Source: Candidatus Coprovivens sp.
GTDB lineage: Bacteria; Bacillota_I; Bacilli_A; RF39; UBA660
NCBI GenBank assembly: GCA_051892935.1
Contig: JBJFGS010000018.1
Coordinates: forward strand, 1-64,000
Reading direction: 5' to 3'
DNA: 64,000 nucleotides
A program made the position numbers and the translations under genes. Shown one piece after another: positions 20,335 through 62,007 of this stretch. Below the pieces are notes generated by a model. It was given only the letters and a program-made list of their open reading frames with translations, had not been told where the DNA came from and did not search any database. The first letter of the stretch is position 1, and every line of letters starts with the position of its first letter.

Positions 20335-20395
20335 AATTCCTTTTTTTTTATGTATAATAATGTTATAATATATAAAGAATAAGGAGTTGTGCTAC

Positions 20396-23824: not shown

Positions 23825-23882
23825 CAAAATTTGCTAATCCTCAACCCAAAATGATATAATCTAAATAGGTTGGGGATTTTTT

Positions 23883-43624: not shown

Positions 43625-43649
43625 AAGACTTTTTTTTATGAATAAAATA

Positions 43650-43684
43650 AACTCCTTTCACCCTAAATACTTATGAAAGGAGTT
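43650..43684 (+). promoter_or_regulatory. SD-sequestering hairpin of sigG
   Basis: Perfect 11-bp IR AACTCCTTTCA/TGAAAGGAGTT. Confidence 0.75.
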
Positions 43685-43687
43685 ATT

Positions 43688-44461
43688 ATGTACAATAAGA
43701 AAGTTGAAATACCAGGAGTAAATACAAGCGAATTAAAAACCTTGAGTAATGAAGAAATGACTGAATTATTTATCGCATATCAAAATGGTGATAAAACAGC
43801 CAAAGATAAATTAGTAGAAAGTAATCTTAAATTAGTTTTAAGTATCTTAAAAAGATTTAAAACTAATGAATCTAATATAAATGATCTTTTTCAAATAGGA
43901 TGTATAGGTTTAATTAAAGCTATTGATAATTTCGATTTATCACTAAATGTATGCTTTAGTACATATGCTGTATTTCTAATCAAAGGAGAAATATTACGAG
44001 CATTTCGTGATTCAACTCCCATAAGAGTAAGCCGAAGTACCAAAGATATTGCCAACAAAATCTTAGATTATAAAGAAGAATACTATAATCAACATGGGCA
44101 TGAACCAACCAACGAAGAAATATCAAAAAAATTAGGAATAGATGAATACTACATAGGCTATGCTCTAACATCACTAAAAGAACCAATAAGTATTTATAGT
44201 CCTATATACAATGATGGTGGTGACACAATTTACTTACTAGACCAAATTGCTACCAAAGAACCAGTTTATGATAAAGAAACATTACTATCATTAAGAAGAG
44301 CCCTAGGAAAACTAAAAGATCGTGAAAAACAAATAATATATAGTAGATATATCTATGGTAAAACCCAAACTGAATTAAGTGAAGAACTAAACATCTCCCA
44401 AGCACAAGTATCACGAATCGAAAAAACCGCCCTTGAAAACATTAAAAAATTAGTAAAATAA
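43688..44461 (+). CDS. sigG: Forespore sigma factor SigG
   Basis: KVEIPGVNTSELKTL N-terminus; DLFQIGCIGLIKAIDNFD; PIYNDGGDTIY; GKTQ; SQAQVSRIEK. Confidence 0.9.
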   Translation: MYNKKVEIPGVNTSELKTLSNEEMTELFIAYQNGDKTAKDKLVESNLKLVLSILKRFKTNESNINDLFQIGCIGLIKAIDNFDLSLNVCFSTYAVFLIKGEILRAFRDSTPIRVSRSTKDIANKILDYKEEYYNQHGHEPTNEEISKKLGIDEYYIGYALTSLKEPISIYSPIYNDGGDTIYLLDQIATKEPVYDKETLLSLRRALGKLKDREKQIIYSRYIYGKTQTELSEELNISQAQVSRIEKTALENIKKLVK

Positions 44462-44492
44462 TGATATAATATTCATAAGAAGGATGATGTTT

Positions 44493-45554
44493 ATGAATAA
44501 GAAAAAAATACTAACCATAATAGCAATTATTATAATAATTATCTTATCAATAGTATTAATTGTAAAAAAAGAAGATGAAAAGAAAGACGAAGAACCAATA
44601 AATAAAGATTATATATTTATTAATTCCCAGAAACTAAATCAAGACTTTGAAATAAACACTAATAATGATGGATATTCTACATTAGGAATTGCAACTAATC
44701 AAGAAGAATACGAAAAAATATTAACTCAATATAATATTAATATCGAAAATGAATCAAAAAAAGACTATTCTAAAAATAACTATGCTCTTATTGTTATAAG
44801 ATATATTGAATGTAATGAAGAAATAGAACCTAAAAACATTACGACTTCTAAAGATAAAGTAACACTAAAATTCAATGTTATTGGCTTGTGTGGCTTATGT
44901 AGCCCAAGTTACAACTTATACGAAGCCGAAATACCAAAAAACATTACATCAAAAGATAATGTTAATATAGAATATGAATACAAAAAAAGTGATTGTGATA
45001 TAAATGTCGAATATAAACCAGTATTGTATCTATATCCAAAAAAGACAACAACTATAAAAGTTAATTTTGAACATGAAGAAAGACTTACAACAACATATCC
45101 AAAATATAAAGAAGAATGGCAAGTAATTGCTAATCCTAATGGTGATTTATATGATAGTAATAACAACTATTACTATGCCCTATATTGGGAAGAAGTTTCT
45201 AAAAGAAATATCGACTTTAGTGAAGGATTCTACGTAACAAAAGATAATGCAATATCATTTCTTGAAGAAAAACTAACTATTCTAGGATTAAATCCAAAAG
45301 AAAGAAATGAATTCATTATGTACTGGTTACCAGTATTAGAAAACAATCAACAAAGTATAGTATATTTTGAACTAACTAAAGAACTTCAAAATAATAACAA
45401 ATTAATAATAAGTCCAGAACCTGATACATTAATTAGAATAAGAATAAATATAAAGAAAGTATCAGAAAAACCAATAATCAAAGAGCAACAATTAACTAAA
45501 CAAGAAAGAAACGGATTTACAGCTATTGAATGGGGTGGCGTAATCCATAACTAA
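44493..45554 (+). CDS. Membrane-anchored protein with conserved KPVLYLYP...EWGG domain
   Basis: TM; KPVLYLYP, YYALYWE, NEFIMYWLP, IEWGG. Confidence 0.65.
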   Translation: MNKKKILTIIAIIIIIILSIVLIVKKEDEKKDEEPINKDYIFINSQKLNQDFEINTNNDGYSTLGIATNQEEYEKILTQYNINIENESKKDYSKNNYALIVIRYIECNEEIEPKNITTSKDKVTLKFNVIGLCGLCSPSYNLYEAEIPKNITSKDNVNIEYEYKKSDCDINVEYKPVLYLYPKKTTTIKVNFEHEERLTTTYPKYKEEWQVIANPNGDLYDSNNNYYYALYWEEVSKRNIDFSEGFYVTKDNAISFLEEKLTILGLNPKERNEFIMYWLPVLENNQQSIVYFELTKELQNNNKLIISPEPDTLIRIRINIKKVSEKPIIKEQQLTKQERNGFTAIEWGGVIHN

Positions 45555-45574
45555 AATATTTAAGTAATAAAATA

Positions 45575-45615
45575 ATAAAAACATATAATTATAATAGGTG
45601 ATTATATGTTTTTAT
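45575..45615 (+). promoter_or_regulatory. Hairpin covering part of the ylmC SD and the start codon; CATATAAT -10 in the left arm
   Basis: 17-bp stem with one G-U pair. Confidence 0.55.
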
Positions 45616-45830
45616 CTGAATTACAAAGTAAAGATATTATAAGTACAAAAGATGGCCGCCGTCTTGGAAGAATAATAGATGCCGAAATAAATAACCAAGG
45701 TCAAATAATAACTCTAGTTTTAGAAGAAAAAAAATCATTTAAAAAAATAATGATGTCAACAAATGACTCCAAAGTTCCCTTTACCAGTATAACCAAAATA
45801 GGTGAGGATGTAATTTTAGTAGATATATGA
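45606..45830 (+). CDS. ylmC: YlmC/YmxH PRC-barrel sporulation protein
   Basis: LSELQSKDII..DGRRLGRIID...ITKIGEDVILV; downstream of sigG. Confidence 0.88.
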   Translation: MFLSELQSKDIISTKDGRRLGRIIDAEINNQGQIITLVLEEKKSFKKIMMSTNDSKVPFTSITKIGEDVILVDI

Positions 45831-45854
45831 TATAATGTAGCGGAGGTGTAACCA

Positions 45855-46361
45855 GTGAATAAAAAAATATTAATAATAGCCATAATTGCCTTAGCACTTG
45901 ATCAAATAACTAAAGTAACATTTAGCATTTTTCTTACAATAAATCAATCCATAAAAGTAATTCCAAACTTTTTTTATTTGACTTTAGTTCATAATAAAGG
46001 AGCAGCTTGGGGAATATTTAGTAATAGTCGAGCTATAATTGCTATAGGTACGATAATATCTTTAATTCTAATATATCATTTTATATATTGTTTTAAACAA
46101 AATAGTAGAAATAATTTAGCTTTTGGGTTATTATTAGGTGGACTAGGTGGAAACTTAATAGATCGTATATTATTTGGTTACGTAAGAGATTTTTTAGATT
46201 TTTATATTTTTAATTATGATTATCCTGTATTCAATGTAGCAGATATAGCTATAGTACTAGGTGTAATCTTATTAATAATAGCAGTAATAAAGGGGGAAGA
46301 TGTTAATGAAAATAATAGTAACAGAAAACAAAGAAAGACTAGACAAATATCTAGCAAATAA
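45855..46361 (+). CDS. lspA: Lipoprotein signal peptidase
   Basis: DQITK, NKGAAWG, GNLIDR, VRDF, PVFNVAD. Confidence 0.96.
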   Translation: MNKKILIIAIIALALDQITKVTFSIFLTINQSIKVIPNFFYLTLVHNKGAAWGIFSNSRAIIAIGTIISLILIYHFIYCFKQNSRNNLAFGLLLGGLGGNLIDRILFGYVRDFLDFYIFNYDYPVFNVADIAIVLGVILLIIAVIKGEDVNENNSNRKQRKTRQISSK

Positions 46362-47202
46362 TACGGAATACTCTCGTTCAACAATTATGAAAATGCTTGA
46401 TGCTGAATACATAAAAGTAAATGGTAAACAAGAAAAAGCTTCATATAAAGTAAGAATAAATGATGAAATAGAAATAAAAGATGGTTTTATCGAAGAAAAT
46501 GATATTACACCAGTAGAAATGCCTATTGATATAGTATATGAAGATGATGATATACTTGTTGTAAACAAACCAAGTGGTTTAGTAGTTCATCCTGGTTCGG
46601 GAAATTACGATAATACACTTGTAAATGGTTTAATGTATTATACTAATACACTAAGTGATATCAACGGTGAAGAAAGACCAGGTATTGTTCATCGTATTGA
46701 TAAAGATACATCAGGTTTATTATTAATAGCTAAGAATAATAAATCTCATGCTATACTTACAGAATACTTTAAAGAACATCAAAATATCAAAAGAGAATAC
46801 ATAGCCTTAATATGTGGCAACTTCCCTCATGAATCGGCAACAATAGATGCTCCAATAGGTAGAGATCCAAAAGATAGAAAAAAAATGACAGTTACTGCAG
46901 ATAATTCTAAAGAAGCAATAACTCATTTAAAAGTACTAAAAAGATATCACGACTACACACTAGTAAGTTTAGTTCTCGAAACAGGTCGTACACATCAAAT
47001 AAGAGTACATATGAATTATATAGGATATCCTATATATAATGATCCTGTATATAATACAAAAAAATGTACAGAATTTGGCCAATTCTTACATTCATACAAA
47101 ATGGATTTTATTCATCCAATAACCAAAAAAGAGATGCACTTTGAAGCTCCACTTCCAAAAGAATTTCAAAACTTTATAGACTCATTAGATAAAGATCTAT
47201 AA
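46306..47202 (+). CDS. rluD: RluA-family pseudouridine synthase
   Basis: S4 domain; VHRIDKDTSGL; GRTHQIRVH; follows lspA. Confidence 0.9.
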   Translation: MKIIVTENKERLDKYLANNTEYSRSTIMKMLDAEYIKVNGKQEKASYKVRINDEIEIKDGFIEENDITPVEMPIDIVYEDDDILVVNKPSGLVVHPGSGNYDNTLVNGLMYYTNTLSDINGEERPGIVHRIDKDTSGLLLIAKNNKSHAILTEYFKEHQNIKREYIALICGNFPHESATIDAPIGRDPKDRKKMTVTADNSKEAITHLKVLKRYHDYTLVSLVLETGRTHQIRVHMNYIGYPIYNDPVYNTKKCTEFGQFLHSYKMDFIHPITKKEMHFEAPLPKEFQNFIDSLDKDL

Positions 47203-47509
47203 TAAGATAAAATAAAAAAACAATATATATTAGATATGGAATAGATAACAATCTATATTTATCATATGTTATCTTAATTTCATAATTCAAAAAAATTGTA
47301 TTTAAAAGTAAAAAAAACATATTAACTAAACTAAATAAATAATCTTTATAGTAGAATAAAAAAACTAAAAAAGAAAATGACAAAATAAAATTAGATATAA
47401 CAAAAAAGACTAAATCATTTTTCATTTTCTTTTCAAAAATAAGCCTACAAAAAAGAATAGATATCAATAATAAGACAATTAAATAAATAATAACCAATAT
47501 ATTAAACAT
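47174..47509 (-). CDS. Truncated TspO/MBR-like membrane protein
   Basis: GAGGTG SD; C-terminal LLSIPYLIY resembles TspO LL.PYL.W. Confidence 0.5.
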   Translation of the reverse strand: MFNILVIIYLIVLLLISILFCRLIFEKKMKNDLVFFVISNFILSFSFLVFLFYYKDYLFSLVNMFFLLLNTIFLNYEIKITYDKYRLLSIPYLIYIVFLFYLIIDLYLMSL

Positions 47510-47568
47510 TATCCCACCTCATATTAAATAATATGTAATAAAGATAATTATATGAAAACGAGGAAAAC

Positions 47569-49437
47569 ATGAAAGATTATACATTATTAAAAGACAGATT
47601 AACAAAAGAAAAACAAATAACTACCAAAGACATAGTTTCTTTAGGCTTTAGCCAATATGATATAAAAGTATTTATTGAAAACAACATTTTAACTAAAGTA
47701 TCTAGAGGTTTATATTACTATCGTCCTTCTTTAATTGCAGAAGAAACAGAAAAAAACAATATAGAAGAACAAATGCAAGAAAAAAAAACAGAAGAACAAG
47801 AAAAACAAAATATAAAAGATGACCTAAATTATCAAGTTAAAAATGCAACATATCTAATGATAAAAAAAGAAACAGATAAAGCTATTAAATCATTTGAAGA
47901 AGTACTAAAAAAAGACCCAAGCAATCAATATGCAAGATTTGCTATCTTTGCATGCTTTATGTTTAAAAAAGATTTTGCAACTGCTTATAATAAATTAATT
48001 CAATTATATAATAATCGAATAAATGATGAACTTTTATTTAATATATATTATTATATGTTACTCTTAAAAGAGTTAATTCCAATAGATGAAAAAATATTAA
48101 ATGATATAGCAAATATTATAGCAACAGAAGGAACAAATATTAAAAGACCACAAGAAGGTTCAACCACTAAAAAATTAATAAGAGCTATCAGTAAAGAAGA
48201 TTGGGAAAAAGCTTTTAAGTATGCAAACATTAATATAAGCATTGATAGAAATCAAAGAAAATATCATCTCACTAATCAATGTTATAGATTTTTAGTAATA
48301 GCAGTTATTAAAAGTAAAAACTTAATATTCGAAAGAAAACAAGAAGAACCAGTCCCAGAAATAGAAATTGAAGAAGAACCAACTATCATTGTTCCACAAA
48401 CTACAATAGATCAAACAATTAAACAAAATTTACTATTAGAAGCAATCAATAGTAATGATTATCAAACAGCACTAACTCTTTTAGAACAAGAAAAAATAGA
48501 TAATCCTGAATTAATAATAAAAACTCTATTAACAAAACTTCATAGTATTCAAAGTCTAATAACCACAACAATCCCAATAAAAGTAACTACTACAGAAAAT
48601 GTAAGATTAGTAGATGAAAATGAATTAGAAACACCAAAACTAACTGAAAAAGCTTTTGAGGAAGAAAAAAAAGTTGAACCACCAATAGTAACACCAACTA
48701 ATCCTGAATCAAGCAAGAGTAATCCAGAACAACTAATAAATACTGCTTATATGGCATACAAGGAATTTTTAACTATACAAAACTTCGAAGAAGCTCGACG
48801 TAATCTACAAAGATATGAATACTTAATTAATAATAACGGAGCACATCGTAATATAAAATACCACTATAATAGAATAGCATTATTAGAACAAGAATATACT
48901 TCCAATCCAAACAGATACTTTCAACATCAAGATTTACAAGAAAAAATTTTTCAAGCTAAAAAAAGAAAATCTTATAAAGAAGTTTTATCTTTAATATCTG
49001 AATATAAAAGATTAGGCGGTATAATCCAGCCAATAGTTCAAGTAATAGAAGCCGAAATGTACATAATGCAAAACGACCTTGAACAAGCAGAAATAATACT
49101 CTCTAATATAAAAGATAATGAAGAACCTGAGTACTTTACTGCTAAAGCACGTATTTACTATGAGCAAAGAAAATTTGAAGAATGTATAAAAATGTGTATT
49201 GCTTATAATGAGAGAAGACCATCATATAATGCCGCTAATTACATTATGTTAGCTAATTGTTATAAAAGGTTAAATAAACCAAGTAAAGCATTAAAAGCAC
49301 TACGTAAAGCAGATGAAATAAATAAAGCAAAAAATTATATTAAAGATTTATCCAGTGATATAGCTGATTTAGAATATCAATCAGATATTCAAAAAGAAAT
49401 ACGATTATCTATGACCCCTAAAAAAAATAAAAAATAA
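47569..49437 (+). CDS. AbiEi-type winged-helix N-terminus fused to TPR repeats
   Basis: ITTKDIVSLGFS...LTKVSRGLY; TPR-like AIKSFEEVLKKDPSN and YIMLANCYKRL..ALKALRKA. Confidence 0.65.
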   Translation: MKDYTLLKDRLTKEKQITTKDIVSLGFSQYDIKVFIENNILTKVSRGLYYYRPSLIAEETEKNNIEEQMQEKKTEEQEKQNIKDDLNYQVKNATYLMIKKETDKAIKSFEEVLKKDPSNQYARFAIFACFMFKKDFATAYNKLIQLYNNRINDELLFNIYYYMLLLKELIPIDEKILNDIANIIATEGTNIKRPQEGSTTKKLIRAISKEDWEKAFKYANINISIDRNQRKYHLTNQCYRFLVIAVIKSKNLIFERKQEEPVPEIEIEEEPTIIVPQTTIDQTIKQNLLLEAINSNDYQTALTLLEQEKIDNPELIIKTLLTKLHSIQSLITTTIPIKVTTTENVRLVDENELETPKLTEKAFEEEKKVEPPIVTPTNPESSKSNPEQLINTAYMAYKEFLTIQNFEEARRNLQRYEYLINNNGAHRNIKYHYNRIALLEQEYTSNPNRYFQHQDLQEKIFQAKKRKSYKEVLSLISEYKRLGGIIQPIVQVIEAEMYIMQNDLEQAEIILSNIKDNEEPEYFTAKARIYYEQRKFEECIKMCIAYNERRPSYNAANYIMLANCYKRLNKPSKALKALRKADEINKAKNYIKDLSSDIADLEYQSDIQKEIRLSMTPKKNKK

Positions 49438-49505
49438 TTAAAAAAGGATAGAGTTATTTGAAAATACTTAAAATTTGATATAATATAATTAATAGGAGGT
49501 ACAAT

Positions 49506-50666
49506 ATGAGTACTATTGTTATGAATAAAAAAGATGAAATAATTATGAAATTAGTTCATTATTTCATTACCGAAGAAAATTATAATCCTATAGTAGTTAA
49601 TGGAGTAAAAGATGAAATATGGTTAGAAAACTCTGAAGGACCATATCGTATCATAAGAATTAATTCGAATAATATTTTTAATAAAGAACAATTAAATTAT
49701 GATTTTTTCAAAATAGAAAGTATTGTTCGTCAAATAAAAAAGAAAACATTATCATTTAATGTTAATACTCTAAATATATTATTAGATGTTAATGAAGATT
49801 TAAAAATAGAAGCACCTAAAAATATAAAACCAGTACCATTAATTGGAAATGATTTAAATATTACTGATGAAGATATCTTAGAAGCTTTTCCAAACATTAA
49901 TGAGAAACTACTAAAAGATTCAACTGGAGTAGATTTAATAATAAATGTAACTAAAGATATCAATGAAAAAACAGAAAAAGATAATAGAATATATGAAAAA
50001 ACATTTAAACCTAAAAAGATTGTTTTTACAAATCTAATAATTATTGCTTGTATCATAATGTTTATCATAGAATGCATTATGGATGGAGCAGGTGTTCTAT
50101 TTAAAGGAGTAACTACTTCTACGGCAATTAATCTAGGAGCTAATATAAGAGCGCTATTACAAGCAGGAGAAATATGGCGATTAGTTACAGCAGCATTCTT
50201 ACATGCCAATTTAATTCACTTAGCACTTAATATGTATTCATTATATATAGTTGGTAGTCAAATAGAAACATTCCTAGGTAAAGTAAAATTCCTTATAATA
50301 TACTTTATAAGTGCAATAGCCGGATGTTTATTATCAGCAGTTTCTTCAGGTTCTCCATCTGTTGGAGCATCTGGAGCAATATTTGGTCTACTAGGAGCAT
50401 TATTATATTTTGGATATCATTATCGTACTTATTTAGGTAATGTTGTTAAAACACAAATATTACCAATTATAGTTTTAAACTTAGCTATCGGATTTATGTC
50501 AACAAGTATTGACAACTTTGCTCATATAGGTGGTTTAATAGGTGGAATATTCACAACAATGGCTCTTGGTGTAGATGGACGATCTAAAACATATGAGAAA
50601 ATAAATGGTTTCCTATGTTTAATTATTTTTATAGGATTCCTTAGTTATTTATTATTCTTTGCATAA
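49506..50666 (+). CDS. Rhomboid intramembrane serine protease (GluP-like)
   Basis: WRLVTAAFLH, HLALNM, GASGAIFG, AHIGG; long N-terminal domain. Confidence 0.93.
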   Translation: MSTIVMNKKDEIIMKLVHYFITEENYNPIVVNGVKDEIWLENSEGPYRIIRINSNNIFNKEQLNYDFFKIESIVRQIKKKTLSFNVNTLNILLDVNEDLKIEAPKNIKPVPLIGNDLNITDEDILEAFPNINEKLLKDSTGVDLIINVTKDINEKTEKDNRIYEKTFKPKKIVFTNLIIIACIIMFIIECIMDGAGVLFKGVTTSTAINLGANIRALLQAGEIWRLVTAAFLHANLIHLALNMYSLYIVGSQIETFLGKVKFLIIYFISAIAGCLLSAVSSGSPSVGASGAIFGLLGALLYFGYHYRTYLGNVVKTQILPIIVLNLAIGFMSTSIDNFAHIGGLIGGIFTTMALGVDGRSKTYEKINGFLCLIIFIGFLSYLLFFA

Positions 50667-50696
50667 AAAAACTTAATCACATGATTAAGTTTTTTT
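50665..50696. terminator. Bidirectional terminator between rhomboid and lexA
   Basis: A7-CTTAATCA/TGATTAAG-T7. Confidence 0.75.
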
Positions 50697-50717
50697 CTAT
50701 TCCTTCTTCTTTAATTA

Positions 50718-51338
50718 TTATAAACTTCTATATAAGCCAATAGCTTTACCTAATATTGTACAATTATCTAATATAATAGGACTCATTGTATCATTCTCAG
50801 GTTGTAATCTAATATAATCCTTTTCTTTATAAAAAGTCTTCAACGTAACATCTCCATCATCAGTCATAGCAACAACTATTTCACCATTACGAGCAACTTT
50901 TTGCTTTTGAACTATAATTATATCTCCATCATAGATACCTACATTTATCATTGACTCACCACTAGCTTTCAAAGTAAATATAGTCTCCCTAGCAGGAATT
51001 AAACTAGCGGGCAATGTAAACCATTCATCAGGATTTTCAATTGCTTCAATTGGATTACCACAAGAAACAGTACCTAATAACGGAACTTTAACTAATTCTT
51101 CATCTTTTTTAGCAAATTCATTATCACCAACAATTTCAATTGTTCTAAATTTTGAATTAGTTTTTCTTATACAACCAGCATCTTCTAATTTTTTTAAATG
51201 TGTATGTACAGTAGCAGGTGATGATAAACCAAGTGCTGAACCAATTTCTCTTGTTGAAGGTGGAAATCCATGCTCAACTACATATTTTTTTATATAGTTA
51301 AGAACATCTTCTTGTCTTTTTGTAATGTTTTTATCCAT
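50718..51338 (-). CDS. lexA: SOS repressor LexA
   Basis: GFPPSTREIG..LSSPATVH; VSCG.P cleavage site; GESM; TLK; GGAGG SD. Confidence 0.96.
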   Translation of the reverse strand: MDKNITKRQEDVLNYIKKYVVEHGFPPSTREIGSALGLSSPATVHTHLKKLEDAGCIRKTNSKFRTIEIVGDNEFAKKDEELVKVPLLGTVSCGNPIEAIENPDEWFTLPASLIPARETIFTLKASGESMINVGIYDGDIIIVQKQKVARNGEIVVAMTDDGDVTLKTFYKEKDYIRLQPENDTMSPIILDNCTILGKAIGLYRSL

Positions 51339-51382
51339 ATGCTTACCTCCATTTAAATAATAGCATATCAAGTGTAAAAAGT

Positions 51383-51434
51383 CAAACAAATGTTTTATTA
51401 TATTATTGACACGAACGAATGTATGTAATATAAT
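51383..51434 (+). promoter_or_regulatory. Consensus sigmaA promoter with LexA (Cheo) boxes
   Basis: TTGACA(51406)-17-TATAAT(51429); CGAACGAATGTATG in the spacer; CAAACAAATGTTTT at 51383. Confidence 0.8.
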
Positions 51435-51465
51435 AAAGATGGTAAAAGGAAGAAGGAGTGATTAT

Positions 51466-51600
51466 ATGAAAAATGAAACTATTAGAAATATGGCAGGAAT
51501 TATACTATTTTATTTATTTATAGTATTAGGTGTTGTTGCAATTAATGCTAGAATGGCAAGTATTTCTGAAAATGCCAATGTAGTAACCATGTCTAATTAA
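51466..51600 (+). CDS. 44-aa single-TM peptide, putative SOS division inhibitor (YneA/SosA position)
   Basis: AAGGAG SD; MKNETIRNMAGIILFYLFIVLGVVAINARM...; terminator follows. Confidence 0.65.
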   Translation: MKNETIRNMAGIILFYLFIVLGVVAINARMASISENANVVTMSN

Positions 51601-51658
51601 TATCAGTTTTAACTGATATTTTTTTATGATATAATAAAAAAATAGAAGAGGTGTTCAT

Positions 51659-52756
51659 ATGAAAGATAACAACGAAAATAATAACGATAATCTATTTACC
51701 CAAATGTTCGGAATTGAATCAGAACAACAAACTCCACCGATTACAAAAGAAGAGCCAATTATGCAAGAAAATCCATTCCAAACTCTCGATTCATCTGAAC
51801 AACACCCAAATATAAAAGAAGAACAAAATACTCTGGAAGACAACAAATCAATTCAATCATTAAATCAAAACAATCCCAATAAACCAAATAATGAACCAGA
51901 TATAATAACATTAACTTCTACTCCAAAAGAAGAACCAAATACAATAAAAGAACAACCTCCACAAGAAAATATCATTCCAAAATTTGATTCAAATGCTATC
52001 CCAACAAATCAATATAATCAGTACTCAGATAATAATCAATTAGATAATGATGATATATCTACAAACGGAACAGGTTTAAAAATCTCGTTAGTATTAATAG
52101 GAATCATAGTTCTCTCATTTGGATGGTTATATTTTTATAATTTTGTTCTTAATCCTAGCACAGAAAATCCTAACCAACAATTAGAAAAAAACTCATCAAC
52201 TGATGAAAAAGAAGACGAAGAAACAGAAGAACCAATTGTAATTAACTTTTCTCAAAATCTAAGTTTTTATAAAGGTTTAGTAGATGATGAAAACGAACTA
52301 AATCAAGAAACACCTTACGAACCAGCAGCCAAAACAGGAGTTATAAAATGTGAATTAATTGAACCATTAAAAGATAGTTCATTAACTACTAATACAATCA
52401 CATATTTATATTACGAAAAAAACTTATTAAAAAAATCATATATGCAACAAATGATTAATATTAGTGATAAAAATACATTTACTACTTTAGCAAATTACTA
52501 CAAAGAACTTGAAAGTCAATATACTAACACTGAAAATTTTACTCTTGATATTCAAATAGATTATATATCTCAAACTATTACTGTCGGAATATTTTCTAAT
52601 TTAGCATATGGTAGTTATGTAAAATCTCCAATAGAAGGAATGAATCTCCAAATAAAACTAAATTATAACGATACAATAAAGAAATCAATGGGAGTTCTTC
52701 TTGGTGCTGAAGAAACTCTAGGTAACGTAAAATGTAGTTCAGTTAAAACATCATAA
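51659..52756 (+). CDS. Hypothetical single-TM protein with disordered N-region
   Basis: N/Q/P/E-rich N-terminus; TM ISLVLIGIIVLSFGWLYFY. Confidence 0.6.
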   Translation: MKDNNENNNDNLFTQMFGIESEQQTPPITKEEPIMQENPFQTLDSSEQHPNIKEEQNTLEDNKSIQSLNQNNPNKPNNEPDIITLTSTPKEEPNTIKEQPPQENIIPKFDSNAIPTNQYNQYSDNNQLDNDDISTNGTGLKISLVLIGIIVLSFGWLYFYNFVLNPSTENPNQQLEKNSSTDEKEDEETEEPIVINFSQNLSFYKGLVDDENELNQETPYEPAAKTGVIKCELIEPLKDSSLTTNTITYLYYEKNLLKKSYMQQMINISDKNTFTTLANYYKELESQYTNTENFTLDIQIDYISQTITVGIFSNLAYGSYVKSPIEGMNLQIKLNYNDTIKKSMGVLLGAEETLGNVKCSSVKTS

Positions 52757-52830
52757 GCAAATTATCAATTTGCTTTTTTATTTTAAATTAAAAAAATATA
52801 TTGTATAATCTTAATAAGAGGTTGGTAAAC

Positions 52831-53964: not shown

Positions 53965-54069
53965 GTCCTATCAAGGACTTTATTTTAATTTACTACAAAA
54001 AGAAACTTAATTTTTTTAATTTACTATTAACTAAAAATTGGTATAATTATAAAGTAGGAGAGTGATAAT

Positions 54070-56052
54070 ATGAACCCTGAACTTCATTCACTTAATAGTT
54101 TAAGAGTCTTAAGTGTCGACATGATATCATATGCCAAAAGTGGACATCCTGGTATTTGTCTGGGCGCAGCTCCAATTATATTTAGTTTATACACAAATCA
54201 CTTAATAGCAAATCCAGCTGATCCAAAGTGGCCTAATAGAGATCGTTTTGTAATGTCAGCAGGACATGGGTCAGCATTACTTTATGCAATGCTATTCATG
54301 GCCGGATATGATATATCAATTGATGATTTAGTTGACTTCAGAAAAATATCATCAAAGACACCAGGACACCCTGAATATGGAGTAACACCAGGCGTTGAGG
54401 TTTCAACTGGACCATTAGGACAAGGGTTAGCAAACGCAGTTGGAATGGCTATGGCTGAAAAATACCTTGCAGCATTAGTTGAAGAAGAAATACCTAAACA
54501 AAAAGTTATTAATTATCATGTTTACTGTCTTGTTGGTGATGGTGACTTAATGGAAGGTATAGCTGATGAAGCAGCTTCTTTAGCTGGTAATCTTGCATTA
54601 GATAACTTAATAGTATTATATGATTCAAATGATATAACGTTAGATGGTGAAATGAAAAAAACATCTAATACCAACATCATTCAAAAGTATATTAATATGG
54701 GTTGGGAAGTAGACTTTGTCGGTGAAGGAAATGAAATAAAAGAAATTGATAAAGCAATTGAAAGAGCTAAAATAAATCGTAAACCAACCTTAATAGAAAT
54801 CAAAACTGTAATAGGCCGTGGTTCTCAGCACGAAGGAAAAAACCTTGTTCATGGAAAACCATTAAGTAGAGAAGACCTAGTAATTGTAAGAAAAAAATAT
54901 GGTATAGAAACAAACACAATGGAAATAACAGAAAACGCTGTTAAATATGTTCGTGAAACAATTAATAGTCGTGTACGTAATCAATACACAACTTGGAAAA
55001 AATCCCTTGAACAAATAAAAAGAGATGGACCAACTGAAAAATTAAAAAGTATCTTAAATTTCATTGAAACTGGCGATGATGGCTTAAATTTTAGTAGTTC
55101 TAGTTTTAAAATACAAAATAACTATAGTGAAGAATTACGTGAATCAAATTCAAAAATAATGAATATAGTAAGCGATCGCTCAAAATTTTTCTTAGGCGGT
55201 AGTGCTGATTTATCTACATCATGTCATACAGCTTTATATAAAGAAGTAGACTATAGTAGAAAAGAAAGAACAGGAAGAAACATTTTCTTTGGTGTAAGAG
55301 AACATGCTATGGCTGCTATTTTAAATGGAATGTCCTTAAGTGGCTTAAGAACATTCGGTTCAACATTCCTAGTTTTTTCTGACTATCTAAAACCAGCTCT
55401 AAGAATGACTGCTCAAATGAACTTACCAGTTACATATATCTTTACTCATGACTCCGTATCCATAGGGCAAGACGGACCATCCCATCAACCAATAGAACAA
55501 CTAGCAATGCTAAGAACAACTCCAAACTTAATAGTATTCCGCCCTGCAGATATTAATGAAGTAATTGGCAGTTGGGATTATATCATAAGTAATAAACGTC
55601 CAGTAGCTATCGTATTATCCAAAGATGAAGCTCATATCCTTGCTGGAACAAGTGGAGAACAAACTAAAAATGGTGCATACATAATCAAAAAAGAAACATC
55701 AAGATTAGATGCTGTTTTAATAAGTACTGGAATAGATCTAACAACAACTTATTTAATAAGTGAAGAATTACGTAGTAGAGGAATAGATACTAGATTAGTA
55801 TCAATGCCATCTGTCGAAGTCTTCCTAAATCAATCAGAAAGTTATCAAAACGAAATTATTCCACCAAATGCCAAAGTAATAACCGTGGAAGCATCCTCAA
55901 CAATGCCTTGGTATCGTTTTGCTTCACGTGGTTGTGCAATAGGTATGGATGAATTTGGTTATAGTGGTAAAAAAGATGATGTTTTAGAAAAAATGAACTT
56001 TGATTACGATTCAATAATGAAAAAAGTAGAAAACTGTATTAGAAATAACTAA
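54070..56052 (+). CDS. tkt: Transketolase
   Basis: SGHPG, RDRFVMSAGH, GDGDLMEG, FGVREH, THDS..GQDGPSHQP. Confidence 0.97.
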   Translation: MNPELHSLNSLRVLSVDMISYAKSGHPGICLGAAPIIFSLYTNHLIANPADPKWPNRDRFVMSAGHGSALLYAMLFMAGYDISIDDLVDFRKISSKTPGHPEYGVTPGVEVSTGPLGQGLANAVGMAMAEKYLAALVEEEIPKQKVINYHVYCLVGDGDLMEGIADEAASLAGNLALDNLIVLYDSNDITLDGEMKKTSNTNIIQKYINMGWEVDFVGEGNEIKEIDKAIERAKINRKPTLIEIKTVIGRGSQHEGKNLVHGKPLSREDLVIVRKKYGIETNTMEITENAVKYVRETINSRVRNQYTTWKKSLEQIKRDGPTEKLKSILNFIETGDDGLNFSSSSFKIQNNYSEELRESNSKIMNIVSDRSKFFLGGSADLSTSCHTALYKEVDYSRKERTGRNIFFGVREHAMAAILNGMSLSGLRTFGSTFLVFSDYLKPALRMTAQMNLPVTYIFTHDSVSIGQDGPSHQPIEQLAMLRTTPNLIVFRPADINEVIGSWDYIISNKRPVAIVLSKDEAHILAGTSGEQTKNGAYIIKKETSRLDAVLISTGIDLTTTYLISEELRSRGIDTRLVSMPSVEVFLNQSESYQNEIIPPNAKVITVEASSTMPWYRFASRGCAIGMDEFGYSGKKDDVLEKMNFDYDSIMKKVENCIRNN

Positions 56053-56066
56053 AAACGACAAAAACT

Positions 56067-56100
56067 AATCACCAAGTTTTATAAAATAAACTTGGTGATT
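56067..56100 (+). promoter_or_regulatory. SD-sequestering/terminator-like hairpin before sirA
   Basis: Perfect 13-bp IR AATCACCAAGTTT/AAACTTGGTGATT; loop TATAAAAT. Confidence 0.7.
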
Positions 56101-56103
56101 TTA

Positions 56104-56517
56104 ATGAGAACTTTCTACCTATTTAAAATAAAACCAGAATACTCAATACTAACAAAAGAAAATCCCTATAACCTATATAAAGCAATAGAAGGAATATACC
56201 ACTTAAAACAAGAAGAACTAACAAATGGATATAACTTCTTTAATCAAATAAGAGATACATTTAATAAAGAATACCTAGATAACAACATATTTGAATACTA
56301 TAAAAATAAGTATACTTATACTAAAGTAAATAACACACATATAATAAATGATTATTATACAGAAGAAAAATCAAAACTAATAATAAACAAAACATACCTT
56401 ATAATTAAAACAACTCTAGAATATTCTTCATTCTTAAAAGCTATAACTAAGAAAAAAAATATCTTTGTTTGTGATTTTGATAATATAGATTACTTTTGGT
56501 TAGAAGAATATCAATAA
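56104..56517 (+). CDS. sirA: Sporulation inhibitor of replication SirA (YneE)
   Basis: MRTFYLFKIK start and FVCDFDN..YFWL end; tkt-sirA-yneF synteny. Confidence 0.8.
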   Translation: MRTFYLFKIKPEYSILTKENPYNLYKAIEGIYHLKQEELTNGYNFFNQIRDTFNKEYLDNNIFEYYKNKYTYTKVNNTHIINDYYTEEKSKLIINKTYLIIKTTLEYSSFLKAITKKKNIFVCDFDNIDYFWLEEYQ

Positions 56518-56574
56518 TCACTTGTTAAATACATAAATATTTAGTAAAATAAACATACAAAGGAGAGTGCTAAT

Positions 56575-56784
56575 ATGTGGATAGACATCTTATATATAGT
56601 AATAGGCTTAGTAGTAGGATTTATTATAGGATTTCTTATTACTAGAAAAATATTTAAAAAACAATTAGAGGAAAATCCTCCAATAAATAAAAAAATGATA
56701 GAAGCTATGATGAGTAGTATGGGAAGAAAACCAAGTCAAAAACAAGTAAGACAAGTAATGCAACAAATGAATAAGTTCAGATAA
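56575..56784 (+). CDS. yneF: YneF (UPF0154) protein
   Basis: [22 protein letters not shown]. Confidence 0.92.
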
Positions 56785-56922
56785 AAAGATATTTTTAAAT
56801 ATCTTTTTTTAAATATCTTTAAAAAAATAAAAAAATGTCGTACAATATTTTTATAAATAACAATTGAGAAATATACATATTTTATGTTATTCTTAATATA
56901 TAGAATAAAAGGGTGTGCGACA

Positions 56923-57420
56923 ATGAATTTACTAATCGTTTTAAATATAATTAATCAAATATATGAACATGAACTATTTCCTAAAGTTTTAACATGCGCA
57001 ATTATACTCCTAATATTTTTATTTATTTTAATCTTTATAATAGGTCTTCGTGACGCAAAAAAAACAAAAAATCCCCCTAAAATTGAAGAAGAAGATATAA
57101 AAGATATTACATTTGATGTTGTAAAAGAACAAAATCAAATAAAAGAAGATGTTACATTTGAAATGCCCGTTTTGACAAAAAATCTAGAAGACTTCAAAAA
57201 AAACCTTGAAGAAGAAATTCAAAAAGAATCAGAAGTAGAAATAATGAAAACAATAAATCCAGATATTCCAGAAGAAAAAGCAACCAAAATTCTTGATATT
57301 AAAGAAATAGAAGATACCGCGATACTTCCTGAACTAGTTACTGAAAGAATCGAGAAACTAAAAGAAAATAGTGAAAAAGAAATGGAATTACCAAAATATT
57401 CAAACAAGTCCGAAAAATAA
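56923..57420 (+). CDS. Hypothetical membrane protein with acidic tail
   Basis: TM followed by an E/K-rich region. Confidence 0.55.
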   Translation: MNLLIVLNIINQIYEHELFPKVLTCAIILLIFLFILIFIIGLRDAKKTKNPPKIEEEDIKDITFDVVKEQNQIKEDVTFEMPVLTKNLEDFKKNLEEEIQKESEVEIMKTINPDIPEEKATKILDIKEIEDTAILPELVTERIEKLKENSEKEMELPKYSNKSEK

Positions 57421-57422
57421 AG

Positions 57423-57462
57423 GAGAATTGACATTATCAATCGTCAAATCTCTTTTTTTTTT
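57423..57462 (+). terminator. Intrinsic terminator
   Basis: GAGAATTGAC/GTCAAATCTC stem plus T10. Confidence 0.7.
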
Positions 57463-57499
57463 CACCAAACTTGTGTTATACTAGCTATGGTGAAAAAGA

Positions 57500-59410
57500 A
57501 TGACAACAACAAAATATGACGAAACATCTATAAAAATATTAGAAGGCCTAGATGCCGTAAGAAAACGTCCTGGTATGTACATTGGATCTACAGATAAAAG
57601 AGGACTTCATCATTTAGTTTGGGAAATTGTCGATAATGCCATTGATGAAAGTATTAACGGCTTCGGCGACTACATAAAAATTACCCTTAATAAAGATGGC
57701 TCAGTAACAATAGAAGACCATGGTCGCGGAGTTCCAATAGGAAAACACGAAAGTGGAATGTCAACTCCAGAAGTAGTATACACAATACTTCATGCCGGAG
57801 GTAAATTTGAAGAATCAGGATACAAAGTATCAGGAGGACTACATGGAGTAGGTGCATCAGTAGTTAATGCTCTTAGTAAAAAAATGGAAGTAACAATTTA
57901 CAAAGAAGGCGTTATAAGTAATATAAAATTTGAAAATGGTGGCCATACTGTCCAAAAACTAAAACAAATAGGTACAACAAATAGAACTGGTACAACAGTA
58001 ACATTTTTACCAGATCCAGAAATATTTAAAAGTACTAATTTTTCATTTACAACAATTACTGAACGTATGCAAGAAAGCGCATTTTTACTTAGCGGTTTAA
58101 CTATTGAAGTAATAGACGAAGAAGATAATCGTAGTGCTAAATTTTTCTACGAAAATGGTTTAATAAACTTCGTTGAATACATTAACGAAGGAAAAACAGT
58201 TCTACATAAAGTAATCAGCTTTAATGGTATAAAACAAGGTATAGAAGTAGATATAGCACTTCAATATCAAGAAGGCTATAACGAAAATATTTTATCATTT
58301 GTAAATAACGTTAAAACAAGCGATGGTGGTACACATGAAACCGGATTTAAATCAGGTATTACTAAAGCTTTTAATGACTACGCAAAAGAAAATAATATCT
58401 TAAAAGGAAAAGATGCTACATTCGAAGGCTCAGACGTCCGTGAAGGATTAAGTGCTGTAATTAATCTAAAAATACCAGAAGCACTTCTTCAATTCGAAGG
58501 TCAAACTAAAGGAAAATTAGGTACACCAGAAGCACGTACTGTAACAGAACAAATAACATATGAAAATATGAAATTCTTCTTAGAAGAAAACCGTGAAATA
58601 GCATTAACTATTGTTGAAAAAGCATCTCGTAGTAAAGTTGCCCGTGAAGCCGCACGAAAAGCCAGAGAAGCAGCACGAAGTGGTAAAGGTAAAGAAAAGA
58701 AAGAAAAAATACTTAGTGGAAAACTAGCTAAAGCAACAGGTAAAGACTTTACCAAAAATGAACTGTTCCTAGTCGAAGGAGACTCTGCTGGAGGTTCAGC
58801 TAAAACAGGAAGAAATAGAGAAACACAAGCAATTTTACCATTAAGAGGTAAAGTTCTTAATTGTGAAAAAGCATCTAATAATGATATAAATAGTAACGAA
58901 GAATTAAATACCTTAACATATGCTATAGGTGCTGGAATAGGTAATGAATTTGACCCAGCAGAATCAAACTATGGAAAAGTAATAATAATGACCGATGCCG
59001 ATGATGATGGCGCTCATATTCAAATACTTCTTTTAACATTTTTCTATCGTTTCATGCGCCCTTTAATAGAAGCAGGAATGTTGTATATTGCTAATCCCCC
59101 TTTATATGCCCTTGATTTTGGAAAATATAAAGAATACGTAGCAACAGACGAAGACTTAGAAAAAAGAAAAAAAGAAGTAAAACAAGCATACAAAGTTCAA
59201 CGATTTAAAGGTTTAGGTGAAATGGATGCCGATGAACTATACGAAACAACAATGAACCCTGCAACAAGAAGTTTAATAAAAGTAACCATTGATGATGCAG
59301 CATTAGCTGAAAAACGTGTTTCAGTACTTATGGGTGATAAAGTTGAACCACGTAAAGAATGGATAGAAGAAAACGTTGACTTTACATTAGAAGATGGATT
59401 TAGGAGGTAA
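57500..59410 (+). CDS. parE: DNA topoisomerase IV subunit B
   Basis: RKRPGMYIGST, EGDSAGG, PLRGK, MTDADDDGAHI, VEPRKEWIE; paired with parC. Confidence 0.93.
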   Translation: MTTTKYDETSIKILEGLDAVRKRPGMYIGSTDKRGLHHLVWEIVDNAIDESINGFGDYIKITLNKDGSVTIEDHGRGVPIGKHESGMSTPEVVYTILHAGGKFEESGYKVSGGLHGVGASVVNALSKKMEVTIYKEGVISNIKFENGGHTVQKLKQIGTTNRTGTTVTFLPDPEIFKSTNFSFTTITERMQESAFLLSGLTIEVIDEEDNRSAKFFYENGLINFVEYINEGKTVLHKVISFNGIKQGIEVDIALQYQEGYNENILSFVNNVKTSDGGTHETGFKSGITKAFNDYAKENNILKGKDATFEGSDVREGLSAVINLKIPEALLQFEGQTKGKLGTPEARTVTEQITYENMKFFLEENREIALTIVEKASRSKVAREAARKAREAARSGKGKEKKEKILSGKLAKATGKDFTKNELFLVEGDSAGGSAKTGRNRETQAILPLRGKVLNCEKASNNDINSNEELNTLTYAIGAGIGNEFDPAESNYGKVIIMTDADDDGAHIQILLLTFFYRFMRPLIEAGMLYIANPPLYALDFGKYKEYVATDEDLEKRKKEVKQAYKVQRFKGLGEMDADELYETTMNPATRSLIKVTIDDAALAEKRVSVLMGDKVEPRKEWIEENVDFTLEDGFRR

Positions 59411-59415
59411 TCAAA

Positions 59416-61962
59416 ATGGCAAAGACAAAAGAAGAAAAAAATATCATCGAGAAAATATATGATTATACTCTAGAAGATATAATGGGGGATAGATTTGGAA
59501 GATATTCCAAATCTATTATCCAAGATCGTGCTCTACCAGATGTAAGAGATGGTCTAAAGCCAGTTCAAAGAAGAATTCTATATACAATGTGGGAAAGTAA
59601 AAACACTCACGATAAACCATATCGCAAATGCGCCAAAGCAGTTGGTGATGTAATGGGAAAATACCATCCACATGGTGATTCTTCAATATATGGTGCCATG
59701 ATATATATGTCTCAACCATGGAAAATGCGTGAAATATTTATTGATATTCATGGAAATAATGGTTCAATTGATGGAGATGGTCCAGCAGCTCATCGTTATA
59801 CAGAAACAAGACTTACTAAATTAGCTTTAGTAATGCTTAAAGACATTAATCGTGATGCTGTAGAAATGACCCTTAATTACGCTGATGAAGACTTAGAACC
59901 AACAGTTCTACCAGCAAACTTTCCAAACCTATTAGTTAATGGTTCTACAGGTATTTCAGCTGGATACGCAACAAACATTCCACCACACAATCTTGGTGAA
60001 ATAATTGATGCAACAATTCATCGTATTGATAATCCAAACTGCCGTTTAGATACGATTTTAAATATCGTTAAAGGACCAGACTTTCCAACAGGTGGTGTAG
60101 TTGAAGGAAAAGAAGGATTACTACAAGCATATTCAACAGGACGTGGTCGTGTTGTTGTAAAAGCTCGTACTGAAATCGTAAAAGAAAAAGGTACTCATCA
60201 AATCATTATTCATGAAATACCTTATGATGTTTTAAAAGAACAACTACGCAAGAAAATTGAAGATATCAAAATAGATAAAAAAGTAGAAGGCATTACCGAT
60301 ATAATAGATGTTTCTGATAAAGAACACATGGCCAAAATTATCATCGAACTAAAAAAAGATGCTAATGCTGAACTAATTTTAAACTATTTACTAAAAAATA
60401 CTGATTTACAAGTAAACTATAATTTTAATATGGTAGCAATTGTAAATCGTCGTCCAAAACAATTAAGTATTTTAGAAATATTAGATGCTTTCATAAGTCA
60501 TCAAAAAGATGTTATATTACGTCGAACTAGATTCGACCTTGGAAAAGCTAAAGAAAGATTACATATCGTAGAAGGCTTATTAAAAGCAGTCGATATAATG
60601 GATGAAATAATAAAGATAATTAGAGCTTCTAAAAATAAGCAAGACTCTATTGATAATCTTGTAAGTAAATTTGCTTTCACTATTGAGCAAGCAACAGCAA
60701 TCGTAATGATGCGCTTATATACATTATCAAATACAGATATAAATTTATTATTAGAAGAACAAGAAAATCTTCGTAAAATGATTGAATTCTTAACTTCAAT
60801 TCTTGAAGATGAAGAAATATTGAAAAAGCAAATGAAATCAAGTTTAATTGAAATCAAAAAAGAATTCGGAACTCCACGTCGTACAGAAATAAAAGATGAA
60901 GTTACTGAAGTTAAATTCGATCCAAAAGATATGATTCCAAAAGAAAATGTTATCGTTGTCGCAACAAATGAAGGATATGTAAAACGTATTCCTATAAAAT
61001 CATATGTTAGTGCTAGTAGTGAACCTACTACTTTAAAACCAGGAGATTTTATAAGAGGTTTATATAGTACAACTACACTTGATACATTATTAATGTTCAC
61101 TAATCTAGGTCATTATTTATATGTCCCAGTTCATGAGATAGTAGAAACAAAGTGGAAAGAATTAGGTAAACATATTAGTAATCTAATTCAAATAAGTGCT
61201 GAAGAAAAAATTATCTCTGCCATGATTCTTGATAATCCAAAAGATAATATAATAATGACAACTAAAAATGGTATTACAAAACGTACAAATCTTGAAAAAT
61301 TAATAGTAAGTAGATATACAAAACCAATAAATGCTATGAAACTAAAAGATGATGATGAAATAGTTTCTGTAGTAAAAGATAATGGCCGCGCTATTTTTGT
61401 AACAGAAACTGGATATTATGTAAACATTGATTCAAACGAAATCCCTATTGTTGGAGCAAAAGCATCAGGAGTAAAAGGAATCAACGTTAAAGACGATCAC
61501 GTAGTTACATGTATGTCACCTGCACCATATGATGAATACATAACAATATTTACTAATAAAAATACATCAAAACGTATTAAAATATGTGAACTTGATACCA
61601 TGACAAGAGCTAAAAAAGGATCAACATTAATAAAAAAAGTAAAATCTACAAATTACAAAATAACAAATGCAATATCAGTTAACAATCGTGATATTGTAAG
61701 TATAAAAACTGATGGTGATTTTAAAGAAATAAAAACTACTGAACTACCAATTATGGACTTATCATCAACAGGAAGTACTATTTCTAAAACACCAATTGAA
61801 GATAGTTTCAAAGTAGCCGAATTAGTTGAACGAAAAATAGAACTTAATGCAACAGAAGAATCCCTAAATAAGAATGTAGATAATATAGAAGAATTACCAA
61901 AAGAAAAAAAAGAAAATCAAGAACTTACAATTAATGACTTCTTAGAAGATTTTAAATTATAG
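59416..61962 (+). CDS. parC: DNA topoisomerase IV subunit A
   Basis: [35 protein letters not shown]. Confidence 0.93.
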
Positions 61963-61964
61963 TA

Positions 61965-62007
61965 AAAAAATCACTTATTAAACATAAAATTTAATAGGTG
62001 ATTTTTT
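61965..62007 (+). promoter_or_regulatory. Terminator/anti-SD hairpin before ylbD with CATAAAAT -10 in the loop
   Basis: 18-bp stem with one G-U pair, ending at the ATG. Confidence 0.7.

Follow-up and report, generated by a model that had tools for sequence, protein, structure and literature searches.

The closest described system is the sigG (spoIIIG) gene of Bacillus subtilis. A very large hairpin has been proposed there to block translation of RNA that reads through from spoIIGA-sigE (PMC5942855, its references 9 and 52); in the account of sigG given by the same paper, this hairpin cannot form in RNA begun at the sigG promoter, misexpressed sigG is harmful to vegetative cells, and a small hairpin of 5 bp inside the sigG leader sequesters the ribosome site and damps expression 2–4 fold. 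For a second gene of interest here, sirA, control by Spo0A~P is described, together with the observation that replication is blocked when sirA is induced in B. subtilis during growth, and the cells are killed (PMC4285326), while the core of the 0A box in Spo0A-activated promoters is given as TGTCGAA (PMC3485338). The present analysis concerns hairpins that cover the ribosome-binding site or start codon of four sporulation genes (sigG, ylmC, sirA and ylbD) in a draft genome of Candidatus Coprovivens sp. (GCA_051892935.1, here G000), which is 1.81 Mb in length, 92% complete and contains 26.5% guanine plus cytosine (GC). All four loci lie in the first 64 kb of contig C18 (JBJFGS010000018.1), and this whole stretch of 64,000 nt is referred to as the window.

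The 3' arm of the inverted repeat before sigG in G000 includes the ribosome site of the gene (GAAAGGAG), as in B. subtilis, and the 5' arm lies upstream of the predicted start of the sigG transcript (promoter-like boxes being found in 21 of 21 upstream regions), so that mRNA born at the promoter could presumably not fold in this manner. By analogy, the putative purpose would also be the same, namely the silencing of sigG on RNA from the upstream gene. Unlike in B. subtilis, the source of read-through would be a gene of 237 amino acids (aa) without family rather than spoIIGA-sigE; the stem has 11 bp as opposed to 20 or more; a U tract is present in most relatives, which makes the hairpin terminator-like; and the layout recurs at sirA, ylbD, spoIIR, spoVAC, ylmC and a gene of 304 aa. 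As in the small leader hairpin of B. subtilis, and in other traps of the Shine-Dalgarno (SD) sequence, an anti-SD segment pairs with the SD; however, the small hairpin forms in promoter-born mRNA, whereas those described here could not, if the -10-like boxes have been read correctly. Intrinsic terminators are similar in being stable stem-loops just past a stop codon that stand between runs of A and of T (compare ylbD, and sigG in relatives), but here the next gene draws its SD and spacer from the 3' arm and the U tract, and a presumed promoter is nested within. Before sirA, a conserved box containing CGACA stands approximately 22 nt upstream of TAnnnT, which recalls Spo0A-activated promoters and makes this a putative binding site; unlike those promoters, the box in G000 is degenerate (AACGACA) and the spacer doubles as a hairpin arm. 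In contrast to CIRCE-like operators, the half-sites at sirA and sigG are not conserved, and changes are compensated in the other arm.

In the literature outside subscription journals, no report was found in which several sporulation genes share such a design or in which it is merged with a terminator. PMC3890552 ('within the terminator') proved to be unrelated, and the main text of PMC517825 makes no mention of ylbD or ylmC. A preliminary description of the window had named the B. subtilis sigG hairpin as its precedent and this is indeed in print, in the account of that gene cited above; the read-through hairpin of sigG is known, while its recurrence across sporulation loci and its merger with a terminator are, as far as this literature shows, new.

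Hairpins over the ribosome-binding sites of four sporulation genes

The preliminary description had claimed a long inverted repeat before each of four sporulation genes that follow a co-oriented gene, with a 3' arm covering the SD, the start codon or both. All four repeats were present in the sequence and were recovered by our own hairpin finder, with their 3' arms in the positions claimed; the co-oriented upstream gene was 45–63 nt away in each case, being the 237-aa gene before sigG, a 353-aa gene before ylmC, tkt before sirA and parC before ylbD. Only the count of pairs at ylmC was amended, from 17 to 18 (including G-U). Folding energies were -12.1 kcal/mol for sigG (11 bp), -15.2 kcal/mol for ylmC (whose loop takes in most of the SD), -16.0 kcal/mol for sirA (13 bp) and -15.0 kcal/mol for ylbD (18 pairs, one of them G-U). 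The elements are arranged as follows:

43610..43637, + strand: hairpin resembling a terminator (A tract, stem, T8), distinct from that of sigG, where the 237-aa gene ends; -9.7 kcal/mol; overlaps the stop codon
43640..43644, + strand: GAATA, -35-like box of the presumed sigG forespore promoter (sigma F/G type, by the sigma-factor consensus); conserved as G[ACT]ATA
43650..43660, + strand: 5' arm of the sigG hairpin, with anti-SD AACTCCTTTCA, within the promoter spacer; identified from sequence, arm-swap p = 2e-4
43662..43669, + strand: CCTAAATA, -10-like box in the loop of the sigG hairpin, conserved in relatives
43674..43684, + strand: 3' arm of the sigG hairpin, with SD GAAAGGAG; ends 3 nt 5' of the ATG at 43688
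43688..44461, + strand: sigG coding sequence (NCBIfam SigG, 1e-95)
45575..45592, + strand: 5' arm of the ylmC hairpin, with CATATAAT at 45582–45589; identified from sequence, the box being kept in relatives
45598..45615, + strand: 3' arm of the ylmC hairpin, comprising the SD end, the spacer, the ATG at 45606 and 7 nt beyond; identified from sequence, weak covariation (p = 0.011)
45606..45830, + strand: coding sequence of the YlmC/YmxH family (TIGR02888, 68 bits against a cut-off of 44)
56054..56060, + strand: AACGACA, resembling a Spo0A box in degenerate form (the 0A core of PMC3485338, reverse-complemented), just 5' of the sirA hairpin; identified by conservation
56067..56079, + strand: 5' arm of the sirA hairpin, with anti-SD AATCACC and a variable inner stem; identified from sequence and covariation
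56080..56087, + strand: TATAAAAT, loop of the sirA hairpin with -10-like box; TAnnnT invariant in an 8-sequence seed (T19, A20, T24)
56088..56100, + strand: 3' arm of the sirA hairpin, with SD GGTGAT, followed by TTTA and ATG; ends 3 nt 5' of the ATG at 56104
56104..56517, + strand: sirA-like coding sequence (25.5 bits with the Pfam SirA model, whose gathering score is 26; gene order)
61965..61982, + strand: 5' arm of the ylbD hairpin, comprising an A tract, anti-SD TCACTT and ATTAAA; begins 2 nt past the parC stop codon
61983..61990, + strand: CATAAAAT, -10-like box in the ylbD loop; CATAnnnT in relatives
61990..62007, + strand: 3' arm of the ylbD hairpin, comprising TTTAAT, SD AGGTGAT and T6; ends at -1, abutting the ATG
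62008..62340, + strand: ylbD coding sequence (Pfam YlbD_coat, 2.5e-16)

The match to SirA is marginal, although the order of genes (lexA ... tkt-sirA-yneF) supports the identification. The 237-aa gene upstream of sigG (42911–43624) matched no NCBIfam or Pfam family, as did many proteins of the lineage, and is not sigE; spoIIGA is found on another contig (C14:20023–20625). Of the 71 genes called on C18, 66 are on the + strand. The uncharacterised gene of 353 aa (44493–45554) separates sigG from ylmC in G000, but most relatives have ylmC immediately after sigG, and there an invariant CATATAATTA box abuts the sigG stop codon.

Comparison with chance expectation

Segments from -60 to +15 were folded and compared with dinucleotide-shuffled controls. 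This showed that the native sequence was significantly more stable than expected at all four loci (sigG, z = -4.7; ylmC, z = -4.3; sirA, z = -5.2; ylbD, z = -4.8), with only 0–1 of 300 shuffles being as stable as native in each case. The spoIVA gene (1389–2867), which the preliminary description had set apart as lacking both a co-oriented gene upstream and a hairpin, does have a divergent neighbour and showed no hairpin (z = +0.3).

Throughout the genome, simple hairpins were sought with a 3' arm overlapping positions -14 to +2, using a crude list of 1828 genes called from open reading frames (ORFs), which misplaced the starts of tkt and spoIVA and makes the ranks correspondingly noisy. A hairpin of -12 kcal/mol or lower that overlapped the ribosome site was found for only 15 of the 1828 genes, among which sirA ranked 3, ylmC 5, ylbD 6 and sigG 15. 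Intergenic hairpins of -10 kcal/mol or lower occurred at 213 co-oriented gene pairs, and only 13 of these overlapped the SD or start codon of the next gene; ordinary terminators ended at least 15 nt ahead of the next start in approximately 200 of the 213. A looser screen based on minimum free energy (MFE) returned 96 genes at -10 kcal/mol or lower, many of which were vegetative (RNase R, ispH, transporters), and these were not counted as members of the design.

Some other products of the scan require comment. For the gene whose hairpin ranked first (C31:19989, DUF6997), the genus contains no relative. The strongest hairpins concerned two small divergent ORFs at C2:24301–25025, which contain GGTCC/GGACC repeats (collagen-like Gly-Pro) and are probably an artefact of coding repeats. 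Upstream of hrcA (C38:65901–66899), a CIRCE-like inverted repeat (TTAGCACT...AGTGCTAA) was recovered over the ribosome site, which serves as a sanity check of the scan.

Conservation and compensatory change within the genus

The genus was represented by 27 genomes, approximately 20 of them with sporulation genes. Upstream regions were excised via tblastn and folded singly, z being calculated from 100 mononucleotide shuffles, and conservation was tested in this way at 12 loci. Rows were excluded where the protein alignment started after residue 3 or where the locus was too short, as were ylbD sequences from outside the genus and homologues of a 1142-aa gene with less than 39% identity. The sigG hairpin was retained at z <= -3 in 18 of 21 genomes (median z = -6.0), that of sirA in 16 of 20 (median z = -4.2) and that of ylbD in 20 of 20 (median z = -6.1), while ylmC produced 7 of 15 (median z = -2.8).

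Compensatory change was evaluated by joining the 5' half of the element in one species to the 3' half in another (the arm-swap test, 5000 permutations). For sirA, the MFE was -12.5 with its own partner and -8.2 when swapped (p = 2e-4); for sigG, the corresponding values were -15.8 and -11.8 (p = 2e-4). Upstream regions of sirA and of sigG, aligned with MAFFT, had yielded 0 pairs in RNAalifold, because the stems were out of register; this approach was replaced by folds of each sequence, the arm-swap permutation, a seed alignment without gaps and a covariance model. In the gapless seed of eight sirA sequences, 94.2% of cells were paired, compared with 29–60% when the partner was slid; both sides had changed in 5 of 13 pairs, and the covariation score was reached by 0 of 500 shuffles. 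The covariance model built from this seed gave 32 matches on both strands, and the count was limited to the 16 that lay in sense orientation at the position of sirA; 90.9% of cells were paired in these rows, a value that leans towards the model. Every one-sided change among the 16 rows (8 in total) was C to U opposite G, such that a G-U pair was kept. The ylbD element was nearly invariant, despite protein identities of only 52–85%, with variation at three positions of the loop; among the few variants, L019 had a rebuilt upper stem and L010 had swapped C/U opposite GG.

The preliminary description had looked to covariation among relatives as evidence for its proposal. Compensatory changes were evident at sirA and sigG, were weak at ylmC, and could scarcely be observed at ylbD, which barely varies. 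To judge from conservation across the genus, together with the compensatory changes at sirA and sigG, the hairpins are under selection.

Six members of the genus (G011, G015, G016, G020, G021 and G041) produced no match for sigG, sirA, spoVAC or spoIIR while retaining parC and a CmpB-like gene. Within the genus these may constitute a branch that does not sporulate, although two of the assemblies, G016 and G020, are just 64–65% complete.

Promoter-like boxes within the hairpins

A -10-like element had been reported in the loop or 5' arm of each hairpin in the preliminary description. Matches of the sigma-70 type were no more frequent in this region than in shuffled sequence (116, compared with 124 +/- 11), and so -10-like strings carry no weight alone and any weight comes from their conservation. 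Conserved boxes were observed, either within the loop or at the 5' arm's 3' end; hence, the elements stood as conserved features but not as an excess over chance. All upstream regions of sigG (21/21) and spoIIR (17/17) contained G[ACT]ATA and CCnnnAn separated by 14–19 nt, and in both cases the first box lay 5' of the 5' arm, the arm itself occupied the spacer, and CCnnnAn was in the loop. In B. subtilis, both genes depend on sigma-F. A related pattern preceded spoVAC in 18 of 20 genomes (GHATA, 16–19 nt, CAnnHTA). The sirA upstream region contained CG[AT]CA in 17 of 20 genomes, mostly at -49, and the full TTCG[AT]CA in 9 of 20; CATAWAAT was found 22–25 nt ahead of the ylmC start codon in 15 of 15, and the ylbD loop conformed to CATAnnnT in 19 of 20, its three middle bases being variable. 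With the -10-like box in the loop, RNA begun from it would be without the 5' arm, wherever exactly the start site falls.

The CGACAAAAT string found before sirA also occurs approximately 60 nt upstream of the spo0A start (C24:103286–104056), which would fit autoregulation via a 0A box.

Terminator-like features

Ordinary terminators in G000 have an A tract followed by a stem and a T tract, and begin between -2 and +20 nt from the stop codon. The four hairpins (-12 to -16 kcal/mol) start at comparable distances past the stop codon of the upstream gene, namely 2 nt for ylbD, 14 nt for sirA, 20 nt for ylmC and 25 nt for sigG, and the ylbD element, 2 nt past the parC stop codon, has exactly the form of an ordinary terminator. 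A simple terminator scanner did not call any of the four on the + strand, because it demanded at least three G-C pairs; scans for consensus promoters and terminators are uninformative in such AT-rich DNA. Of four genus members without ylbD, three had an unrelated, ordinary terminator after parC, which left the next SD free.

Runs of five or more T between the SD and ATG occurred in 3.7% of 1394 genes. By comparison, such a run was found in 20 of 20 genomes at ylbD (T6 in G000), in 12 of 21 at sigG (G000 not among them), in 8 of 20 at sirA (14 of 20 for a run of four or more; T4 in G000), in 5 of 17 at spoIIR, and in 8 of 9 for a gene of 304 aa on contig C22; none was found in 21 genomes at spoVAC or in 15 at ylmC. 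The suggestion in the preliminary description that read-through RNA terminates at these hairpins thus gained a U tract and a terminator-like position at three of four loci, in most relatives, but found no U tract at ylmC, and termination itself is a prediction from these features. There seem to be two flavours of element, on the evidence of sequence pattern: those that would combine a terminator with an SD trap, and those that would trap the SD or start codon alone.

Controls and further cases

At vegetative genes, and upstream of yneF, conservation was lacking. Hairpins at z <= -3 were found in 1 of 14 genomes for maf (arm-swap p = 0.64), 1 of 15 for parE (p = 0.56) and 0 of 19 for yneF (p = 0.69). 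The 1142-aa gene, which has the classic layout of terminator, promoter and SD, produced 1 of 9 (p = 0.013). Both parE and the 1142-aa gene have equally short gaps upstream, and in each a separate terminator is followed by the promoter. At 20335–20388 of the window, a long alternative pairing between the preceding terminator and U tract and the SD region of the 1142-aa gene reaches -15.2 kcal/mol in G000, and is not significant in relatives.

Eight sporulation families were looked up in G000 using NCBIfam models, of which spoIIID, spoIIAA and spoIIIAA returned no match in this 92%-complete genome. Nested hairpins were identified at two further sporulation genes, spoIIR (z <= -3 in 7/17, median z = -2.8, arm-swap p = 6e-4) and spoVAC (z <= -3 in 5/20, median z = -1.9, arm-swap p = 2e-4). 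Another instance concerned the 304-aa gene at C22:7685–8599, where the hairpin (ATACTTCCT...AGGAAGT plus T7) is highly conserved, with z <= -3 in 8 of 9 genomes and arm-swap p = 2e-4. The protein matched nothing in Pfam or NCBIfam. Apart from G020 (65% complete), its gene was found only in genomes that also carry sporulation genes, which makes it a candidate for a sporulation gene specific to the lineage. Therefore, the design was present at a minimum of seven loci: sigG, spoIIR, spoVAC, sirA, ylbD, ylmC (weakly) and the 304-aa gene.

A hairpin of this kind was also found before the CmpB-like gene (PF06541) at 23883–24521. It occupies 23836–23878 of the window (AATCCTCAACC...GGTTGGGGATT plus T6), ends 4 nt ahead of the ATG, and carries TGATATAAT in its loop. 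It was confined to G000 and its two nearest relatives, among which there are compensatory differences; the other 20 genomes keep the promoter and have no hairpin.

Discussion

What was observed before the sporulation genes comprises the structures themselves, the extent to which they are conserved and co-vary, the places in which conserved boxes stand, and the U tracts. On balance, these are probably best explained as a module in which three functions are merged within a gap of 45–63 nt: a terminator for the upstream gene, an anti-SD hairpin and a nested promoter. RNA from the co-oriented upstream gene (the 237-aa gene, tkt or parC) would contain the whole inverted repeat and fold. Where a U tract follows, as at ylbD, at sirA and at sigG in most relatives, the hairpin would act as the intrinsic terminator of the upstream gene, and in any RNA that reads through, the anti-SD 5' arm would pair with the SD or start codon and leave the sporulation gene untranslated. 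The gene's own promoter would be nested in the same sequence, with a -35 or activator box shortly before the hairpin, the 5' arm serving as spacer and the -10-like box in the loop. RNA begun in or after the loop would be without the 5' arm, could form neither terminator nor SD trap, and would be translated. Transcript start sites, termination, the translational block and the sigma factor for each promoter are in this account predictions, made from the arrangement of boxes and arms.

Several observations weigh against a merged module. The ylmC hairpin is weak, with an arm-swap p of only 0.011, z <= -3 in fewer than half of the genomes, most of the SD in the loop and no run of five T in any relative, while ylbD has almost no variation to test (arm-swap p = 0.44), and the hairpins of spoVAC and spoIIR are modest by their median z. 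In G000 itself, sigG has a separate terminator (43610–43637) and a degenerate U tract. The implied leaders would be very short, at about 11–16 nt, with the SD at the extreme 5' end, and the sigma F/G-type label of the sigG boxes, like the assignment of sigma factors generally, is presumed from consensus sequences. By raw MFE, the four segments ranked only 57–70 among 1817 (the top 3–4%). Folding energies of sense and antisense strands did not discriminate, since the controls also favoured sense, and sirA did so in 10 of 20 genomes. Public sequencing data listed no RNA run; three runs of unspecified kind from a single study contained 0.47 of the words. Moreover, the relatives are not independent, and the loci, yneF excepted, were chosen for having a hairpin in G000. 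Finally, spoIIGA and spoIVB in G000 lack the design and have a separate terminator ahead of the promoter, spo0A, spoIID and a spoVT-like gene in G000 have no hairpin, and the vegetative CmpB-like gene has a nested hairpin in 3 of 23 relatives. The preliminary description had regarded the hairpin as a generalised trick of this genome; this holds in so far as it recurs at sporulation loci beyond the original four, but given these exceptions the design is found mostly, and not only, at sporulation genes, and is neither universal nor exclusive.

The simplest alternative is that these are plain intrinsic terminators, pushed onto the next gene by genome compaction, in which case the overlap with the SD would be a by-product and that with the promoter incidental. 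Their shape and their position after the stop codon match the ordinary terminators of G000, U tracts are present at ylbD, at sirA and at sigG in relatives, a parC terminator is kept at the same spot in three of four relatives without ylbD, and overlaps are confined to short gaps (20–120 nt, with 11 of 13 in the 40–80 nt bins). We consider this explanation unlikely nonetheless, because only 13 of the 213 intergenic hairpins show such overlap, the 5' arms are complementary to the SD in particular, and at vegetative genes with gaps just as short (parE and the 1142-aa gene) a distinct terminator precedes the promoter. Pairing is also kept or co-varies at spoVAC and ylmC, which have no U tract (T runs of five or more in 0/21 and 0/15), and the sigG gene of G000 retains its anti-SD hairpin despite the separate terminator 13 nt upstream. 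Chance complementarity is a very improbable cause. At 26.5% GC, T-rich spacers and TATAAT boxes could be expected to pair with purine-rich SD sequences and ATTATATG-type starts; G000 does contain many such pairings at promoters of the sigma-A type (maf and parE among them), where they are not conserved, the ylmC stem is largely CATATAAT with ATTATATG, plus A5 with a run of Phe-Leu codons, and sigma-70-like matches did not exceed shuffles. Against this stand the dinucleotide-shuffle values (z from -4.3 to -5.2) and conservation across the genus with compensatory changes at sirA, sigG, spoIIR, spoVAC and the C22 gene (arm-swap p <= 6e-4 in each), using a test that does not fire by default, as the controls demonstrate (p = 0.56–0.69).

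It could also be supposed that the repeats operate as DNA, either as operators for a dimeric sporulation regulator or as cruciforms, acting on the promoters they overlap. The repeats do overlap presumed promoters; that of ylbD is nearly invariant in 20 genomes, as expected of an operator, and a true operator palindrome, the CIRCE-like repeat of hrcA, was recovered by the same scan. Yet the arms at sirA and sigG change in sequence while complementarity is kept (5 of 13 sirA pairs; arm-swap p = 2e-4), all eight one-sided changes at sirA give G-U, which pairs in sense RNA and not in DNA, the upper stem of ylbD has been rebuilt in L019, and no half-site is common to the four loci beyond the anti-SD/SD pair. 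A role as DNA operators or cruciforms is accordingly considered very improbable.

If the merged module is correct, it extends the single case of B. subtilis sigG to a recurring design with clear comparative support, and yields motifs that are candidates for forespore and Spo0A promoters in a gut lineage not yet cultured. It would also represent a very small natural insulator, of possible use in synthetic circuits. More tentatively, the design may be a reusable cassette of 35–45 nt combining terminator, promoter and ribosome site, selected as a device of developmental genes in a spore-forming lineage with reduced genomes, which would end the upstream housekeeping transcript, block translation of read-through RNA and conceal a stage-specific promoter, having originated independently at a minimum of seven loci and with at least three classes of promoter. 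Genes that are harmful when misexpressed, such as sirA and sigG, could then sit 45–63 nt behind tkt or other vegetative genes, and a compact genome with nearly all of its genes on a single strand would, by means of one hairpin, silence harmful developmental genes beside highly expressed housekeeping genes.

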